DNA of 28,749 bases from a virus (Duplodnaviria > Heunggongvirae > Uroviricota > Caudoviricetes), in the IMG/VR virus record IMGVR_UViG_2925914267_000002. One strand, written 5' to 3'. Shown piece after piece: positions 4,581 to 23,382 of the stretch (positions are counted from its first letter, which is position 1; each line of letters starts with the position of its first letter). Made by a program: the position numbers and the translations under genes. The notes below the pieces were generated by a model that saw only the letters and a list, made by a program, of their open reading frames with translations, was not told where the DNA came from and did not search any database.

Positions 4581-4644
4581 TGAGGTAGCCTGAGTTTAAC
4601 GGACACTCCTTCCTGAAATAGAATGGCATCAGAAGGAGCTAATA

Positions 4645-4947
4645 ATGAGCAGAAAAACCCAACGTTACTCTAAAGAGTTCAAAGCCGAAGCTGTCAGAAC
4701 GGTTCTTGAAAATCAACTTTCGATCAGTGAAGGCGCTTCCCGATTATCTCTTCCTGAAGGCACTTTAGGGCAATGGGTTACCGCCGCCAGAAAAGGGCTC
4801 GGTACTCCTGGTTCCCGCACGGTGGCTGAACTGGAATCTGAAATTCTGCAACTGCGTAAGGCGTTAAATGAAGCTCGCCTTGAGCGAGATATATTAAAAA
4901 AAGCAACAGCGTATTTTGCACAGGAGTCGCTGAAAAATACGCGTTAA
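4645..4947 (+). CDS. IS3-family transposase OrfA (HTH)
   Basis: 100-aa ORF MSRKTQRYSKEFKAEAVRTV... with a leucine-zipper-like C-terminus typical of IS3-family OrfA. Confidence 0.9.
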   Translation: MSRKTQRYSKEFKAEAVRTVLENQLSISEGASRLSLPEGTLGQWVTAARKGLGTPGSRTVAELESEILQLRKALNEARLERDILKKATAYFAQESLKNTR

Positions 4948-4982
4948 TCGAACAATGGCGACAACAATTTCCCATTGAAGCG

Positions 4983-5801
4983 ATGTGTCAGGTATTTGGT
5001 GTATCCAGGAGCGGTTATTACAACTGGGTACAGCATGAACCCTCAGACAGAAAACAAAGTGATGAGCGGCTAAAACTGGAGATTAAGGTGGCACATATCC
5101 GCACTCGCGAAACATATGGAACCCGGCGGCTCCAGACGGAGCTGGCAGAGAATGGCATCATCGTTGGTCGTGACCGACTGGCACGTCTTCGTAAGGAGCT
5201 AAGGCTACGCTGTAAGCAGAAACGCAAGTTCAGAGCGACTACGAACTCGAACCACAATCTGCCAGTTGCGCCAAATCTGCTGAACCAGACGTTCGCTCCT
5301 ACAGCACCAAATCAGGTCTGGGTGGCGGACCTGACGTATGTTGCCACACAGGAGGGATGGTTGTACCTCGCTGGCATCAAAGATGTTTATACGTGCGAAA
5401 TTGTCGGCTACGCCATGGGAGAGCGCATGACAAAAGAGCTGACAGGTAAAGCCCTGTTTATGGCGCTCAGGAGCCAGCGCCCACCTGCCGGGCTAATCCA
5501 CCACTCTGATCGAGGTTCACAGTACTGCGCATACGATTACCGGGTCATACAGGAGCAGTTTGGTCTGAAAACATCAATGTCGCGTAAAGGTAACTGTTAC
5601 GACAACGCTCCGATGGAAAGCTTCTGGGGAACGCTGAAAAATGAGAGCCTGAGCCACTATCGTTTTAATAACCGGGATGAAGCCATCTCAGTAATACGGG
5701 AATACATTGAGATTTTCTACAATCGTCAGCGTCGTCACTCTCGTCTGGGGAATATCTCCCCGGCAGCCTTCAGGGAAAAATATCATCAGATAGCTGCTTA
5801 A
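4983..5801 (+). CDS. IS3-family transposase OrfB (DDE catalytic domain), probably expressed as an OrfAB fusion by -1 frameshift
   Basis: 272 aa from the first Met, in the -1 frame relative to orfA. Contains DDE-type integrase-core motifs (WVADLTY, HSDRGSQY, YDNAPMESFW). Confidence 0.9.
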   Translation: MCQVFGVSRSGYYNWVQHEPSDRKQSDERLKLEIKVAHIRTRETYGTRRLQTELAENGIIVGRDRLARLRKELRLRCKQKRKFRATTNSNHNLPVAPNLLNQTFAPTAPNQVWVADLTYVATQEGWLYLAGIKDVYTCEIVGYAMGERMTKELTGKALFMALRSQRPPAGLIHHSDRGSQYCAYDYRVIQEQFGLKTSMSRKGNCYDNAPMESFWGTLKNESLSHYRFNNRDEAISVIREYIEIFYNRQRRHSRLGNISPAAFREKYHQIAA

Positions 5802-5844
5802 AAAAAGAACAAATGGTAGTGTCCGCTATTGCCAGTACACCTCA

Positions 5845-5867
5845 ACGTTTGGTAATAACGTTTTCAT
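5845..5867 (-). pseudogene. dicB: dicB N-terminal fragment (start codon and first 7 codons), detached by the IS600-like insertion
   Basis: Reverse complement of 5845-5867 reads ATG AAA ACG TTA TTA CCA AAC GT = MKTLLPN(V). Removing the IS and one ACG repeat rejoins it in frame with VNTSEGC at 4580. Confidence 0.75.
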
Positions 5868-6036
5868 TATGGCGTCCTCAACAATGAATTTTGTGATGCA
5901 GTGCCTGGTGCCTCCAGGTGACGTTAACCAGTTAACAATTAACGCCGGATACAGAGAATCCACCCATAACACTGTTTTTGGTTTTAACTGTTCCGCGTGC
6001 GCTTAGCCGCATTCACCGCATCACAAAATTCACTTT

Positions 6037-6094
6037 AAAAACGGCGGCAGAGCAGTCACGGAGTAAAACTGATACCGCCAAACGTCACCAGAAA
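6037..6094 (-). ncRNA. dicF: DicF small regulatory RNA, with terminator U-tract
   Basis: Minus-strand sequence TTTCTGGTGACGTTTGGCGGTATCAGTTTTACTCCGTGACTGCTCTGCCGCCGTTTTT matches the DicF sRNA as I recall it. Lies between the ydfA-like genes and dicB as in K-12 Qin; 3' GC-rich stem plus U-run. Confidence 0.75.
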
Positions 6095-6369
6095 ATTGAT
6101 AACAGAGGGCGTTGCAGCGGGGTTGTCACTTAAGCGTATGGTCAACCTGACAACTCGGTGTCCTCAACGGGGAAGGAATAACCCCGCCATACTTACCGCC
6201 GCGCCATTTCGCGGGTTGCCACAACCGGAAGCGCACGGTCGAATTAAATTTAACGACACCGTACAGTGAGACGAACTTCGCCGTGCGCTTTCGTGTTGTG
6301 TGCCTGCTTTTAACCACGTCAGGCGAGGTGGTATCCTTCTTATCCCGAATAACCAAGAAGGAAATCTAT

Positions 6370-6570
6370 ATGACTAAAGAAGAATTTGTCTCTTATATTT
6401 TTGATAAAACGGTTGAAATGTATGCCGCTACTTACGGGTCCTGTAATCCTCTGAATAAACCAGAGGGGAAAGATGATTTCGACAAAATTTACCGCTTCTT
6501 GGAGGACCGCTATATCAAAAGGTTAGAGGACGCAGGGATCAAATCCCCAGTGAAGTCACCATTGTCCTGA
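6370..6570 (+). CDS. Hypothetical small protein (67 aa from internal Met of track ORF 6283-6570)
   Basis: ATG at 6370 preceded by AAGGA; product MTKEEFVSYIFDKTVEMYAATYG... Lies on the strand opposite the dicB operon and overlaps the 3' end of the 6539-6916 ORF, so it is uncertain. Confidence 0.3.
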   Translation: MTKEEFVSYIFDKTVEMYAATYGSCNPLNKPEGKDDFDKIYRFLEDRYIKRLEDAGIKSPVKSPLS

Positions 6571-6916
6571 GAACTTGCAGGACGTCATGATCGTAACTTC
6601 CATCCAAACCGCGACGGCAAATTGCTTCTCGTATTACCGGAAGCAGTTCGCTGGAAATCTCGGTGCATATTTCACCTGCTAATACGCCTGGCTCAAGTGA
6701 GAATATTGGTGAACTTACGGTCTTGGTCTCGACAGTTTCAGAGTCAGTGCCAACATTATAAAGCTCAACGAAAGCGGTCTTGATTTTCCGGGCCAGATCT
6801 TTTGCTGGCTCGCTTGCAATATCTTTCCCGATTTCTCGCAGCACAGAATGCAATGTATGAGCTGCTGTTTTCTGTACATCAGACGGTAAATCTTTAAATT
6901 CCATCGTCAGCCTCAT
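6539..6916 (-). CDS. Hypothetical protein in the dicB-operon leader region (YdfB/YdfC-equivalent position)
   Basis: 125-aa ORF (possible start MEFKDLPSDVQ...) between the ydfA-like gene and dicF on the operon strand. Family not recognised with certainty. Confidence 0.45.
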   Translation of the reverse strand: MRLTMEFKDLPSDVQKTAAHTLHSVLREIGKDIASEPAKDLARKIKTAFVELYNVGTDSETVETKTVSSPIFSLEPGVLAGEICTEISSELLPVIREAICRRGLDGSYDHDVLQVLRTMVTSLGI

Positions 6917-7068
6917 CAGTCAGTGTTTCTGGCTAACCAGCAACGCGCGCCAGATTCGGTTTTAAACGTTTTGCTTTTGGTATATGTCATCGCGGTGAAC
7001 GTACCGTCCTGGTTGGGGAACACGCCACATACCAGAGATTCGCTGTTGCCAAGATCGATAGTATCCAT
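6916..7068 (-). CDS. ydfA: YdfA-like small protein (first gene of the dicB operon)
   Basis: 50-aa product MDTIDLGNSESLVCGVFPNQDGTFTAMTYTKSKTFKTESGARCWLARNTD from the internal Met of track ORF 6916-7224; resembles K-12 YdfA as I recall it. Confidence 0.55.
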   Translation of the reverse strand: MDTIDLGNSESLVCGVFPNQDGTFTAMTYTKSKTFKTESGARCWLARNTD

Positions 7069-7149
7069 GCTGACCTCATTTCCCCTTAACGCCGGGGTAG
7101 CGGAACTGTTTGCTGAGAACACCGTGCGGTGTGTTGATGGAGGTAATTT

Positions 7150-7196
7150 AGTTTTCTCATTATTTTTCGTCAAGGATTTTTGATGAGAAAACTCAA
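7150..7196. promoter_or_regulatory. Candidate operator in the promoter region of the dicB operon
   Basis: Perfect 11-bp inverted repeat AGTTTTCTCAT (7150-7160) / ATGAGAAAACT (7183-7193) with a 22-bp spacer. The 13-mer TGAGAAAACTCAA (7184-7196) recurs at 7720-7732 upstream of the dicC-like gene. Confidence 0.45.
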
Positions 7197-7260
7197 GTAT
7201 TGGCGCAAGATAAAGCCAATACATTGAAATGTAAGGCTTTAAAATTTTGTGAAGGGATGA

Positions 7261-7668
7261 TTATTGATGCTTGTTGCGTTTGCGAGCCTCTAATAGCTCG
7301 GTGAACAGGCGATTAAAATTCTCAACGCGGGCGCGGAGTTCGCTGAGTTGTGCTTGTTGCTCTGATTTAGGAAGTGCGCGATACAAACGCAGCATCTCTA
7401 ACTCATCTTCCGATAAGTCTAAGGCACTATCGAGTGAAACAGGGGGAGCTGGTGTTTTGTCCTCGTCGCCAAACAGTATCCAGGTTGGTGAACATTGCAA
7501 TACCTCGGCGAGGCGATGCAAATTTTGCCCGCGCGGGGCTGTATGGTCACTTTCCCATAATGAAATTGATGAGCCAGATACGCCAGCAGCTTTGCTTAAA
7601 CCGTTTTGACTTAAGCCTACCTGCTTACGTCTTTCTCTAATGCGTTGACCTAAAGTTTTCTCGTTCAT
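7261..7668 (-). CDS. dicA: DicA-like HTH (XRE-family) repressor, cI analogue
   Basis: 135-aa product from internal Met (MNEKTLGQRIRERRKQVGLSQ...). HTH motif and the stretch VLQCSPTWILFGDEDK match DicA as I recall it; divergent from a Cro/DicC-like gene. Confidence 0.85.
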   Translation of the reverse strand: MNEKTLGQRIRERRKQVGLSQNGLSKAAGVSGSSISLWESDHTAPRGQNLHRLAEVLQCSPTWILFGDEDKTPAPPVSLDSALDLSEDELEMLRLYRALPKSEQQAQLSELRARVENFNRLFTELLEARKRNKHQ

Positions 7669-7718
7669 ATTTAGATATCTTAATAACCCTTGACTTGAGA
7701 TTCCTTGAGTGATTAGCA

Positions 7719-7732
7719 TTGAGAAAACTCAA
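7719..7732. promoter_or_regulatory. Candidate operator between the dicA-like and dicC-like genes
   Basis: TTGAGAAAACTCAA (inverted ends TTGAG/CTCAA) 14 bp upstream of the dicC-like start; core 13-mer identical to 7184-7196. Additional TTGAG copies at 7695 and 7705. Confidence 0.4.
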
Positions 7733-7745
7733 TACTGGAGGTGCG

Positions 7746-7973
7746 ATGTTTAAATCAGACGTAATTAATTTTTACGGTACGAAAGCCAAAGTAGCGAAAG
7801 CTGCTGGCGTTGACCCATCTGCTGTTTCTCAATGGCAAGAGCTGGTTCCTGAAGGTCGCGCGATGCGTCTACAGGAGGCATCTGGCGGCGAGCTTCTGTA
7901 TGATCCCAAGGTTTATGACGAATATCGTAAGACGAAGCGGGCGGGGCGGTTGAACAATGAAAATCACTCCTGA
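7746..7973 (+). CDS. dicC: DicC/Cro-like small regulator
   Basis: 75-aa product from internal Met (MFKSDVINFYGTKAKVAKAAGVDPSAVSQWQ...); divergent from the dicA-like repressor; HTH-like N-terminus. Confidence 0.6.
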   Translation: MFKSDVINFYGTKAKVAKAAGVDPSAVSQWQELVPEGRAMRLQEASGGELLYDPKVYDEYRKTKRAGRLNNENHS

Positions 7974-10489: not shown

Positions 10490-10816
10490 ATGACTAAAAA
10501 TACTCGTTTTTCCCCCGAAGTCCGTCAGCGGGCGATTCGTATGGTTCTGGAAAGTCAGGATGAATATGACTCACAGTGGGCGGCAATTTGTTCCATTGCC
10601 CCAAAGATTGGCTGTACGCCGGAGACTCTGCGTGTCTGGGTTCGCCAGCATGAGCGGGATACCGGGGGCGGTGATGGTGGGCTCACCAGTGCTGAACGTC
10701 AGCGTCTGAAAGAGCTGGAACGTGAAAATCGTGAACTGCGCCGCAGTAACGATATCCTTCGCCAGGCTTCCGCTTATTTTGCGAAGGCGGAGTTCGACCG
10801 CCTCTGGAAAAAATGA
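10490..10816 (+). CDS. IS629 transposase OrfA
   Basis: 108-aa [26 protein letters not shown]..., typical IS3-family OrfA. Confidence 0.9.
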
Positions 10817-11703
10817 TGCCACTGCTGGATAAGCTGCGTGAGCAGTACGGGGTCGGACCGGTATGCAGCGAACTGCATATTGCCCCGTCAACGTATTACC
10901 ATTGTCAGCAACAGCGACATCATCCGGATAAACGCAGTGCCCGTGCGCAGCACGACGACTGGCTGAAGAGAGAGATACAGCGCGTATACGATGAAAATCA
11001 TCAGGTGTACGGTGTGCGTAAAGTCTGGCGTCAGTTGTTACGGGAAGGAATCAGGGTAGCCAGATGTACAGTGGCGCGCCTCATGGCGGTTATGGGACTT
11101 GCCGGTGTTCTCCGGGGTAAAAAGGTCCGCACTACCGTCAGCCGGAAAGCCGTTGCCGCAGGCGACCGCGTAAACCGTCAGTTTGTGGCAGAACGACCTG
11201 ACCAGCTGTGGGTGGCTGATTTTACTTACGTCAGCACATGGCAGGGCTTCGTCTATGTGGCGTTTATCATTGATGTGTTTGCCGGATACATCGTGGGGTG
11301 GCGGGTCTCATCGTCTATGGAAACGACATTCGTGCTGGATGCGCTGGAGCAGGCGTTGTGGGCCCGTCGTCCGTCTGGCACCATCCATCACAGCGATAAA
11401 GGCTCTCAGTATGTGTCACTGGCCTATACGGAGCGACTAAAAGAAGCCGGATTACTGGCATCAACAGGGAGTACAGGCGACTCGTATGACAACGCGATGG
11501 CTGAGAGCATCAATGGTCTTTACAAAGCGGAGGTAATACACCGTAAGAGCTGGAAAAACCGTGCAGAAGTGGAACTGGCCACACTAACGTGGGTGGACTG
11601 GTATAACAATCGACGATTGCTGGGAAGGCTGGGCCATACTCCTCCGGCAGAAGCAGAAAAAGCTTATTATGCTTCCATCGGAAACGATGATCTGGCAGCC
11701 TGA
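10813..11703 (+). CDS. IS629 transposase OrfB (DDE domain)
   Basis: 296-aa ORF overlapping orfA (ATGA); DDE-type motifs [25 protein letters not shown]. Confidence 0.9.
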
Positions 11704-13185: not shown

Positions 13186-13859
13186 GTCGTCACCTTGATG
13201 ATTTGTTAATGCGGGGGCAACATTAATAAATGTACTTGAGACCGCAATTTGTCGATGGAGCCAACATTTATAACTATGTGCTTCTACCCTCTGAATTTTT
13301 ACATGTGAATTGCTAGCTTGAATAGCTCTATCATTATATACGTGGCACTAAATTATGGCTGTTTTTCGCTCAAAGCGGACTAGAAGGTTAGCTTGTGTCG
13401 GACTTTGCGTATTAAAAGAAGTGCTGGTGGTGACTAGTGGTTGTGCCCCATTTCCACAGAAAAAATCAGAGAAACTATACCCAATAGTTGTATTGAATCA
13501 CTGACGAGACAGCCTCATATTCATCAGGACTGGTCTACGTCCAATACAGGAGGTTGTGGTGCTGGTTCTCAAATGTGCGCTGGCTATTACGGCTGTAATG
13601 GCGATTTATTGTCTTGCTATTGTTCTTATGGATCGCCTTTCTGACTGATTTCATATTGGCGAGGTAACGGTAGTTAAGTAGAATGGCTGCGGGTGCTTGA
13701 GGCTATCTGCCTCGGGCATGAACACCAAAGGCAGATAGAGAAAAGCCCCAGTTAACATTACGCGTCCTGCAAGACGCTTAACATTAATCTGAGGCCAATT
13801 TCATGCTAGACACATGTAGGTTAGCCTCTTACGTGCCGAAAGGCAAGGAGAAGCAGGCT

Positions 13860-14015
13860 ATGAAGCAGCAAAAGGCGATGTTAATCGCCCTGATCGTCAT
13901 CTGTTTAACCGTCATAGTGACGGCACTGGTAACGAGGAAAGACCTCTGCGAGGTACGAATCCGAACCGGCCAGACGGAGGTCGCTGTCTTCACAGCTTAC
14001 GAACCTGAGGAGTAA
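13860..14015 (+). CDS. hokD: Hok-family type I toxin (HokD/RelF-like)
   Basis: 51-aa product MKQQKAMLIALIVICLTVIVTALVTRKDLCEVRIRTGQTEVAVFTAYEPEE from ATG 13860 (RBS AAGGAGAA); single TM helix; matches HokD/RelF as I recall it. An in-frame ATG at 13803 extends the frame by 19 codons. Confidence 0.9.
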   Translation: MKQQKAMLIALIVICLTVIVTALVTRKDLCEVRIRTGQTEVAVFTAYEPEE

Positions 14016-17279: not shown

Positions 17280-17579
17280 AAAAATTCCTTAATACTGATA
17301 ACTTGGCGCACTATACACACGTTCCTGAAGAAAGCTATAGTTTTTTGATGGGGTTGAAGATGGCTGGATGTCTAAAATAAACATTGCTTCATATGTTCAA
17401 CTATGCGTTAATGATTGCGTCGGTTTGAAGAACAGACGATATACGAAGTAGTTTACTAAAGCAGTTCTCATTTCAGGTGTTATTCACTTATTCCTTCTTT
17501 GAGTCTCTCCAATTAAGTACGAAGTCGTTTCTGTTATGCAAACCATTTATGCCGAAAGGCTCAAGTTAAGGAATGTAGA

Positions 17580-17795
17580 ATGTCAAATAAAATGACTGGT
17601 TTAGTAAAATGGTTTAACGCTGATAAAGGTTTCGGCTTTATTTCTCCTGTTGATGGTAGTAAAGATGTGTTTGTGCATTTTTCTGCGATTCAGAATGATA
17701 ATTATCGAACCTTATTTGAAGGTCAAAAGGTTACCTTCTCTATAGAGAGTGGTGCTAAAGGTCCTGCAGCAGCAAATGTCATCATTACTGATTAA
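17580..17795 (+). CDS. cspB: Cold-shock protein CspB
   Basis: 71-aa [74 protein letters not shown]; about 300-nt leader region shared divergently with cspF. Confidence 0.9.
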
Positions 17796-18075
17796 AATTC
17801 ATCGCTCGTCTGTATACGATAACGAAGAAGGCTGATGCCTGAGTAGAGATACGGACAGAGTAGTGAATATTGGATCTCTTTAATAAAAAGTAAGGAGGTC
17901 CAATACATGAAACAATGGCTAGCATATTTGGCAAAATCTTAATCAGGAAAAGTATGCTAACCATTGTGGTGAAGTGCAGGTTTGCTGCATGAATAGTTTT
18001 ACAGCAGAAGCTAACTGCTGGCATGGCAAAACAAAGTGCGTAAGTGGATGACTCCCACAAAAAGCACCACAATCT

Positions 18076-20102: not shown

Positions 20103-20465
20103 GGTAATATTAAATCGGAACATTTACATCGCGGAATGTAAAATTTAAATAAAAAGGACTCTTCCATGAGCCAAAATTCCTGAAATCTTAAGGGTAAGAT
20201 AAAAGGTCTTAATCAGAATGACACGTTTTATTAATAAATAAAGCTATTCTTTCATTGCTGTGTTTTTCTTTACAAAAGTAATCCTTGCTATGGGTGGTTA
20301 ATCATGCGTTAATGGTGTTCTGGTTTGTTACAAATTTATCTGAAGCAGTCATTGTTATAATTTTATTATTTGTACCTCTTGAGATTTCCTTGTTGGTTTT
20401 TCTCTCTGATATTTTTTTTTCGGACCATTCTGCCCAAGGGCTAATTTCTTCAAAAGGTAATAATT

Positions 20466-20678
20466 ATGTCTAACAAAATGACTGGTTTAGTGAAATGGTT
20501 TAACCCTGAAAAAGGTTTTGGTTTCATCACGCCGAAAGATGGCAGCAAAGATGTGTTTGTCCATTTCTCAGCAATTCAGAGCAACGATTTCAAAACATTA
20601 ACTGAGAATCAGGAAGTTGAATTTGGTATTGAGAACGGACCTAAAGGTCCTGCCGCTGTTCATGTAGTGGCGCTTTGA
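20466..20678 (+). CDS. cspI: Cold-shock protein CspI
   Basis: 70-aa [73 protein letters not shown]; long leader (20103-20465). Confidence 0.9.
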
Positions 20679-20711
20679 GGTAGACAATATTACAAACCAT
20701 ATTCACTTTAG

Positions 20712-22807: not shown

Positions 22808-23382
22808 TGGCATTCAGAATGAGTGAACAACCACGGACCATAAAAATTTATAATCTGCTGGCCGGAACTAATGAATTTATTGGTGAAGGTGATGCATATA
22901 TTCCGCCTCATACAGGTCTGCCAGCAAACAGTACCGATATTGCACCGCCAGATATTCCGGCTGGCTTCGTGGCTGTTTTCAACAGTGATGAGTCATCGTG
23001 GCATCTCGTTGAAGATCATCGGGGTAAAACGGTTTATGACGTGGCTTCCGGCGACGCGTTATTTATTTCTGAACTCGGTCCGTTACCGGAAAATGTTACC
23101 TGGTTATCGCCGGAAGGGGAGTTTCAGAAGTGGAACGGCACAGCCTGGGTGAAGGATACGGAAGCAGAAAAACTGTTCCGGATCCGGGAGGCGGAAGAAA
23201 CAAAAAACAACCTGATGCAGGTAGCCAGTGAGCATATTGCGCCGCTTCAGGATGCTGCAGATCTGGAAATCGCAACGGAGGAAGAAATCTCGTTGCTGGA
23301 AGCATGGAAAAAGTATCGGGTATTGCTGAACCGTGTTGATACGTCAACTGCACAGGATATTGAATGGCCAGCACTGCCGTAG
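22807..23382 (+). CDS. tfaQ: Tail fibre assembly protein (Tfa)
   Basis: 191-aa ORF; start overlaps the stf stop (TAATG); Tfa-like sequence and position. Confidence 0.85.

Follow-up and report, generated by a model that had tools for sequence, protein, structure and literature searches.

Three copies of a 14-bp dyad, TTGAG-N4-CTCAA (5+4+5), flank the DicA-like repressor gene of an Escherichia coli Qin-like prophage and form, as judged from the DNA sequence, the functional unit of its control regions, that is, predicted operators. The three sites, here termed OB1, OB2 and OC, are in all likelihood the operators of a P22/Qin-type immunity switch, bound by dimers of the DicA-like repressor. The switch is a known one and the site sequence is a new, heteroimmune one; no new mechanism is involved. 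The stretch of DNA analyzed (28,749 nucleotides, hereafter the window) is the Qin-like prophage adjoining rspAB/ynfE, and the genes relevant to the immunity region are as follows.

7261 to 7668, - strand: dicA-like repressor gene (135 aa; HTH_3 domain, E = 2e-15; 57% identical to K-12 DicA)
7746 to 7973, + strand: dicC-like cro gene (75 aa; P22_Cro family, E = 3e-16; 70% identical to K-12 DicC)
6916 to 7068, - strand: ydfA (DUF1391, by domain match)
6042 to 6093, - strand: DicF RNA, downstream of the dicA-like gene

These domain matches and K-12 identities bear out the gene calls of a preliminary description of this DNA (a DicA-like repressor, a dicC-like gene and a dicB/dicF side), and the gene order matches that of K-12 Qin, with dicC followed by dicA and then by ydfA, dicF and dicB. 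The repressor has a P22 C2-type N-terminal helix-turn-helix (HTH) and a short helical C-terminal part, without an S24 peptidase domain. The dicB gene is present, but in the window an IS3 element interrupts it after codon 8, so that the left operon can here deliver DicF and not DicB. The region occurs in about 800 of the 5426 complete genomes, counting those in which 80% or more of a 1.1-kb query is covered, and the isolated phage HannyBb encodes a repressor with a sequence identical to that of the window. As far as the citations in PMC10448788 and PMC3441716 convey, the dicA/dicC locus has long been described as a P22-like immunity region.

The preliminary description had reported a 13-mer, TGAGAAAACTCAA, on either side of the repressor gene and, in addition, a perfect 11-bp inverted repeat with a 22-bp spacer. 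Sequence reading and an exact search placed the 13-mer at 7184-7196 and 7720-7732, both on the + strand, and the arms of the repeat (agttttctcat at 7150-7160 and atgagaaaact at 7183-7193) proved to be perfectly complementary and 22 bp apart. Searching the window added a third copy with one mismatch (TGAGAAAACTAAA) on the - strand at 7147-7159, and the inverted repeat is the overlap of copy 1 and copy 2 in opposite orientation. The 13-mer positions were thus correct, and the unit was not: instead of a word occurring twice plus a separate inverted repeat, the window contains the 14-bp dyad three times, with 0, 1 and 2 mismatches to TTGAG-N4-CTCAA.

7147 to 7160: OB1, predicted operator, TTTAGTTTTCTCAT on the + strand and ATGAGAAAACTAAA on the - strand (sequence, motif and promoter scan)
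7183 to 7196: OB2, predicted operator, ATGAGAAAACTCAA, just upstream of the -35 of the dicB-operon promoter
7719 to 7732: OC, predicted operator, TTGAGAAAACTCAA, a perfect 5+4+5 dyad

Copy number by itself would be compatible with a chance or recently duplicated word of no function in AT-rich intergenic DNA. The motif is A/T-rich, and over the whole window neither the 13-mer (three occurrences with up to two mismatches versus 1.03 expected, with 6 of 100 shuffles reaching three) nor TTGAGNNNNCTCAA (two occurrences with up to one mismatch versus 1.11 expected) is significant. Therefore, the case stands on position and conservation and not on copy number, and region-restricted shuffles were used in place of whole-window copy-number statistics. 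A 13-nt word common to both intergenic regions (7140-7260 and 7669-7745) was reached in only 4 of 5000 dinucleotide shuffles, and an 11-bp inverted repeat inside 7140-7260 in 13 of 3000 shuffles. The dyad TGAG-N4-CT[CA]A has no match in the 28.7-kb window beyond the three sites. Given that the cores are moreover invariant across eight enterobacterial genera while their flanks diverge, that none of their positions is polymorphic in three or more of 51 E. coli haplotypes, and that their positions match those of known operators (see below), a word without function is an extremely unlikely explanation.

A promoter scan of 6900-7800 identified only two sigma-70-like promoters, one leftward and one rightward, and both are overlapped by the predicted operators.

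7145 to 7173, - strand: predicted dicB-operon promoter (PL analogue), -35 TTGACG at 7173-7168, 17-bp spacer, -10 TAAATT at 7150-7145
7690 to 7719, + strand: predicted dicC promoter (PR analogue), -35 TTGACT at 7690-7695, 18-bp spacer, -10 TAGCAT at 7714-7719

On the left side, OB1 overlaps the -10 and the spacer of the dicB-operon promoter, which scores 9/12 matches and whose transcript would start near 7138 by analogy with the P22 annotation. The promoter-proximal (outer) half of OB1 reads CTAA, not CTCA, as a result of its fusion with the -10 hexamer TAAATT (CTAAATT), and in all 10 other orthologous loci compared TGAG-N4-CTAA is likewise fused to a TAA(A/T/C)(T/C/G)(T/C) -10 hexamer at OB1. 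OB1 and OB2 lie 36 bp apart, centre to centre, in the window. Their spacing is 35-36 bp in the window and in the 11 related loci where both were located, and the corresponding distance is 35 bp in K-12 as well as between OL1 and OL2 of P22. Since this spacing amounts to about 3.4 helical turns, two bound dimers would lie on different faces of the DNA, and direct side-by-side cooperativity between them is doubtful.

The complementarity of OB2 and OB1 also raises the possibility of an RNA or DNA hairpin, which might, for example, terminate transcription between dicA and the dicB operon or insulate one from the other, the copy at dicC then being incidental. Folding of the - strand RNA of 7140-7262 gives two hairpins, including the 11-bp OB2/OB1 stem (MFE -23.7 kcal/mol, z = -5.0, with 0 of 200 shuffles folding as well), but no U-run follows the stem, a terminator scan of 6900-7800 finds 0 sites, and the stem would put the -35 hexamer inside the 22-nt loop. 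In addition, the OB2/OB1 complementarity falls to 8-9 of 12 in 3 of the 11 orthologous loci, with the half-sites TGAG/CT.A intact and the changes not compensatory, so that the arms are kept as sequence, and the same word is found unpaired at the dicC promoter. A function of the repeat as a hairpin is accordingly very unlikely, and for RNA it was rejected for the lack of a U-run and of compensatory change. In the conserved leader of the left operon, RNAalifold recovers a 4-bp stem only, with almost no covariation; where stems in this leader seem by eye to show compensatory changes, the aligned sequences are out of register.

On the right side, OC begins at the last base of the dicC -10, abutting or overlapping its edge, and spans the start site predicted near 7726; in K-12, the dicC start site has been mapped by 5'RACE (PMC3441716). 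The -35 of this promoter, TTGACT, is identical in P22 PR and in the K-12 dicC promoter. Two further, degenerate sites lie between OC and the repressor gene.

7693 to 7710: OM, degenerate site, ACTTGAGATTCCTTGAGT, with one good half-site (TTGAG); homologue of P22 OR2 (ACTAAAGATTCCTTTAGT)
7669 to 7684: OA, degenerate site, ATTTAGATATCTTAAT, abutting the dicA start codon; homologue of P22 OR3

Across genera, the conservation of OM is confined to the TGAG half and the centre, and in Enterobacter asburiae (locus L102) it is a complete dyad, TGAGGAATCTCA. OA contains a candidate dicA -10 (TAAGAT, - strand, 7682-7677) and has no variable position from 7670 to 7684 in the 51 haplotypes. As it is also kept in loci with other operator types (L007 and L008, see below), OA may be chiefly a promoter element, the dicA -10, and not a specificity-matched operator. 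The dicA transcript, predicted to start near 7671 on the - strand, would be nearly leaderless. The K-12 counterparts of the two sites, Om and Oa, are not bound by DicA alone (PMC3441716). The right side thus comprises one full site and two degenerate ones at 23-24-bp intervals, the left side two sites 36 bp apart, and with a single full dyad on the right, a lambda-style cooperative occupancy of three sites is not evident.

The closest solved structure to the repressor is the P22 C2 N-terminal domain (E = 8e-16), and similarity to the 434 repressor and 434 Cro is distant (E = 5e-4 and 2e-6, respectively). In 434 and lambda, repeated dyad operators common to repressor and Cro overlap divergent promoters, and the 14-bp sites of 434 have an uncontacted centre that tunes affinity. 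The window resembles these phages in its repeated dyads over divergent promoters and differs from them in that its half-sites are unrelated to theirs and that three evenly spaced, full cooperative sites per side, as found there, are not evident. The correspondence with P22 goes further. OB1, OB2 and OC align with the annotated OL1, OL2 and OR1 (P22 genome BK000583), and in both systems repressor and cro are divergent, the early-left promoter lies downstream of the repressor gene, and the dyad is built as 5+4+5 with a preference for an A/T centre. P22 PL (TTGACC/TAAATT) has the identical -10 and the same spacing, with OL1 fused to TAAATT; P22 OL2 (TTGAAGAAAACTTAAAT) is located upstream of the -35, at 35 bp from OL1, and has a GAAAACT core in common with OB2; and OR1 lies at the -10 and start of the cro promoter. 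As DNA identity between P22 and the window across the control regions is only about 50-56%, this homology is block-level, given by blocks and positions.

Unlike in P22, the half-site is TTGAG here and TTAAG there, and the OR2 and OR3 counterparts are degenerate, with no OL3 counterpart seen. The repressor is 135 aa long with a short helical C-terminal part, in contrast to the RecA-cleavable S24 domain of C2, and differs from C2 at the DNA-facing positions (V33S, N32G, Q37L, E44A, N46R and E48Q). The P22 consensus is ATTTAAG-ATAT-CTTAAAT, and V33 sits in the thymine-methyl cleft of TTAA (PMC5175364). The 4-bp centre of the P22 operator is uncontacted and read indirectly through groove shape, an A-tract centre being bound tightest (PMC4267663), and the conserved AAAA centre of the present dyads is in line with that preference. 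In C2, E44 and E48 face the central minor groove and N46 is at its mouth (PMC4267663, PMC5175364); A44 and R46 are kept as TAPRG in all proteins of the group to which the window belongs (group A), and the window repressor also has Q48. We tentatively consider, as a possible though doubtful reading, that the central A-tract is read directly in this repressor group, unlike in P22, possibly by R46. If true, P22, the present type, the L007/L008 type and K-12 would be successive natural steps of specificity switching on a shared scaffold, and this series would include a shift from indirect to direct readout of the operator centre.

For the analysis of conservation, orthologous loci were used whose repressors are 68-76% identical to that of the window, with one 96% identical E. 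coli variant added. The sources were Buttiauxella (two species), Salmonella, Scandinavium, Citrobacter koseri, Klebsiella, Enterobacter (two species), Yokenella and a second E. coli type. Since a scan of species-representative genomes gave 14 loci only, the divergent group-A loci were fetched singly by exact protein look-up. A scan of viral contigs with a family alignment returned 80 near-identical E. coli copies, which were of no use for divergence and served the polymorphism analysis.

All three sites were found in 11 loci, from Escherichia, Buttiauxella, Salmonella, Scandinavium, Citrobacter, Enterobacter and Yokenella. Dyad positions 2-5 (TGAG), 10-11 (CT) and 13 (A) are invariant in 33 of the 33 sites of these loci; position 12 is C or A, and always A in OB1; and the centre is A or T in 130 of 132 letters. 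The bases adjoining the dyads diverge freely between the same 11 loci. In the Klebsiella locus (L100), OC is retained, and the 12-bp core of OC, TGAGTTTTCTCA, is invariant in 12/12 group-A sequences. Within each locus (1.1-5.4 kb), the dyad pattern occurs in the expected places only, and OC keeps its distance to the dicA ATG (57.5 bp, or 55.5 bp in two loci). The preliminary description had named a lack of conservation in related immunity regions as the outcome speaking against its motif, and this outcome did not occur, the dyad being conserved at orthologous positions in the group-A loci.

The same contrast between cores and surroundings is seen within E. coli. Among 51 distinct haplotypes, none of the 36 core positions varies in at least three haplotypes, compared with 30 of 161 other non-coding positions (Fisher one-sided p = 0.0013); because of the phylogenetic relatedness among the 51 haplotypes and among the 11 loci, these statistics overstate independence, and the p-value should be taken as a rough guide. 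Of the positions up to 6 bp from the sites, 17 of 36 vary in at least three haplotypes. At OC, 0 of 14 positions vary at all, and the bases at 7716-7718 and 7733-7735, on its two sides, vary in up to nine haplotypes.

The window is about 98% identical to K-12 Qin up to 7139 and again from about 7846, and the two are diverged in between. Therefore, the operators, both promoters, dicA and the HTH part of dicC have been exchanged as one module. The likeness to K-12 extends from the orthologous locus with its near-identical flanks (the ydfA leader and the 3' half of dicC) to the 135-aa repressor architecture and the operator layout, in which a single strong site sits at the dicC promoter -10 and the dicB promoter -35 has a site on each side. 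In contrast, K-12 Oc is TTGTTAGTCATAACTAACAA (20 bp, TTAG-N6-CTAA), with another half-site and spacing than TTGAG-N4-CTCAA, DicA is only 57% identical, both recognition helices differ, and dicB is cut by IS3 in the window. From these differences in operators, DicA and helices, the window and K-12 are heteroimmune alleles. The same specificity as K-12 DicA immunity was considered as well and rejected, as the window operator does not match K-12 Oc and helix 3 differs. A third type is represented by L007 and L008, and the three recognition-helix classes correspond to three dyad types, all at the same positions.

This window and 11 related loci: DicA helix 3 S[GDEN]S[ST][IV]SLWE, DicC helix DPSAVSQW, dyad TGAG-N4-CTCA
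L007 and L008: DicA helix 3 SHATISLWE or SYASISLWE, DicC helix D/E-RSAVSQW, dyad TTGTTGAG..TTAACAA
K-12 type: DicA helix 3 SHVSVSQWE, DicC helix RLASLYSW, dyad TTGTTAG-N6-CTAACAA

In P22, 434 and lambda, repressor and Cro use common operators, which speaks against assigning the sites solely to the DicC-like Cro or to a host factor, with the DicA-like repressor binding elsewhere. Such an assignment would agree with the DicC helix DPSAVSQW, near SDAAVSQW of P22 Cro and invariant in 12/12 group-A loci, and with the first residue of the DicA helix, which varies (G, D, E or N) while the site is unchanged; in K-12, DicC ChIP-seq peaks flank dicA, with sites on both sides of the gene (PMC11430063). 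However, residues 33, 34 and 37 of DicA helix 3 co-vary with the operator type, and the K-12 site corresponding to OC, Oc, is bound by DicA itself. DicA is titrated by Oc and no longer binds it after single-base changes, and from Oc it represses dicC and activates dicA (PMC3441716). Furthermore, the K-12 dicB promoter is derepressed by deletion of dicA (22-fold) and not by deletion of dicC (PMC10448788). We consider it improbable, on this evidence, that the repressor binds elsewhere, and the DicC-like Cro is probably a second user of the same operators.

Comparison with the published DicA operator, which the preliminary description had proposed, places OC at the position of the genetically validated K-12 Oc (PMC3441716). 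For the left side, the Reg-Seq paper lists a DicA site for dicB as low-evidence and of unknown location (PMC7567609). The earlier prediction of operators for both the dicB/dicF and the dicC sides, following an OL/OR-like logic, is supported by their placement on the promoters, by their conservation and by the positions of K-12 Oc and of the P22 operators.

What is observed comprises the sites themselves, where they lie on the predicted promoters, how they are conserved and how they co-vary with the recognition helices; binding, stoichiometry, cooperativity and activation at these sites are what we infer, and the switch might work as follows. A dimer of the DicA-like repressor would occupy each 14-bp dyad, with the HTH of each subunit reading one TTGAG half-site and the A/T-only 4-bp centre being read through DNA shape. 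Judging from their positions, OB1, which covers the left -10 and spacer, and OB2, which lies before the -35, would together exclude RNA polymerase and silence the ydfA-dicF-(dicB) operon. From its place over the start site and the edge of the dicC -10, OC would repress dicC, a ydaT-like gene and the replication genes. If K-12 is a guide, repressor bound at OC may also stimulate a weak dicA promoter, and the DicC-like Cro, acting on the same sites, may flip the switch.

A full-text literature search for the operator word returned, among the papers covered, unrelated primer sequences only. TTGAG-N4-CTCAA is put forward as the predicted immunity specificity of a prophage type common in E. coli. 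It leaves the general picture of these switches unaltered. What the comparison adds is where the predicted dicB-promoter operators are in all members of the family, including K-12: one at the -10 and spacer, the other immediately upstream of the -35. As a side observation, the change of residue 33 from Val in P22 to Ser here accompanies the change of the half-site from TTAAG to TTGAG.

Among the compared loci, the Enterobacter asburiae region (L102) carries a full dyad, TGAGGAATCTCA, at the position of OM, the degenerate site of the window (7693-7710) that is the homologue of P22 OR2. This dyad lies upstream of dicA, 33.5 bp from its ATG and 24 bp from OC, the putative repressor operator at 7719-7732 in the window, and the L102 repressor has the same helix as that of the window (SGSSISLWE). 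Therefore, two full, putative right-hand operators are kept in some family members.

The following features bear on the start of the repressor gene.

Features at the 5' end of dicA
7261-7719, - strand: long repressor form, from an upstream ATG at the OC edge (7719-7717); 2450-2908 in locus L106
7705-7700, - strand: hexamer AGGAAT
7682-7677, - strand: hexamer TAAGAT, 17 bp from the former

In the isolated phage HannyBb and several database proteins, the repressor is annotated as 150-153 aa, starting from the upstream ATG. K-12 DicA and all the diverged homologues have 133-135 aa and begin at the 7668 ATG; the longer form is probably a start-codon mis-call. The dicA ATG is not preceded by a Shine-Dalgarno sequence (7669-7705, - strand), and the same two hexamers recur in P22 within the annotated PRM span; transcription from PRM begins 4 nt upstream of c2. 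Taken together, the missing Shine-Dalgarno sequence and the match to the P22 PRM span suggest a near-leaderless dicA mRNA, with a predicted start near 7671.

At the other end of the gene, a hairpin (GTATTGGC-N10-GCCAATAC, 7197-7222) is found 3' of dicA, adjoining OB2, the putative operator at 7183-7196. It is included in the predicted minimum-energy fold and may act as a weak dicA terminator. The segment is polymorphic (11 of 26 positions), the hairpin is lost in the 96% variant from E. coli, and other genera have different stems at this position.

The leader of the left operon (7072-7139, - strand; CATCAA..GTTCCGC..) is kept across genera, even between immunity types. Two stems were seen by eye, with differences that look compensatory (ACACC/GGTGT versus AATCAC/GTGATT and CCCC/GGGG versus GCC/GGC). 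RNAalifold on the leader alignment supported a 4-bp stem only, because the alignment register varies from sequence to sequence. The leader may serve as a nut-like element or as a processing element.

Further along this operon, dicB is interrupted.

Insertion at dicB
4582-5843: insertion sequence of 1262 bp, present relative to strain A1
4983-5801: IS3-type transposase ORF carried by the insertion
5826-5870, - strand: dicB remnant, interrupted by the insertion

The gene is broken after codon 8 (MKTLLPNV, followed by EVYWQ and a stop), and thus this prophage copy can make DicF but not DicB. Separately, the strain A1 locus, which is otherwise 98-99% identical, lacks a segment of ~362 bp (6159-6520) that is located between dicF and the 121-aa ORF in the window; a small ORF on the + strand (6283-6570) overlaps this segment.

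Other Rfam matches were obtained in the window, the first of which suggests a second IS3-family element.

Other Rfam matches
10771-10887: ALIL frameshift pseudoknot
13691-13865: sok antitoxin RNA
17419-17811 and 20319-20705: cspA-type thermoregulator leaders
23150-23348: IS009 RNA

Finally, E. coli-type Qin immunity regions were found on contigs of metagenome-assembled genomes labelled Bacillota, Veillonella parvula and Collinsella (L003, L004 and L009). The repressors of L003 and L004 are 100% identical to that of the window and the one of L009 is of the K-12 type; binning contamination is the most likely origin of these regions.
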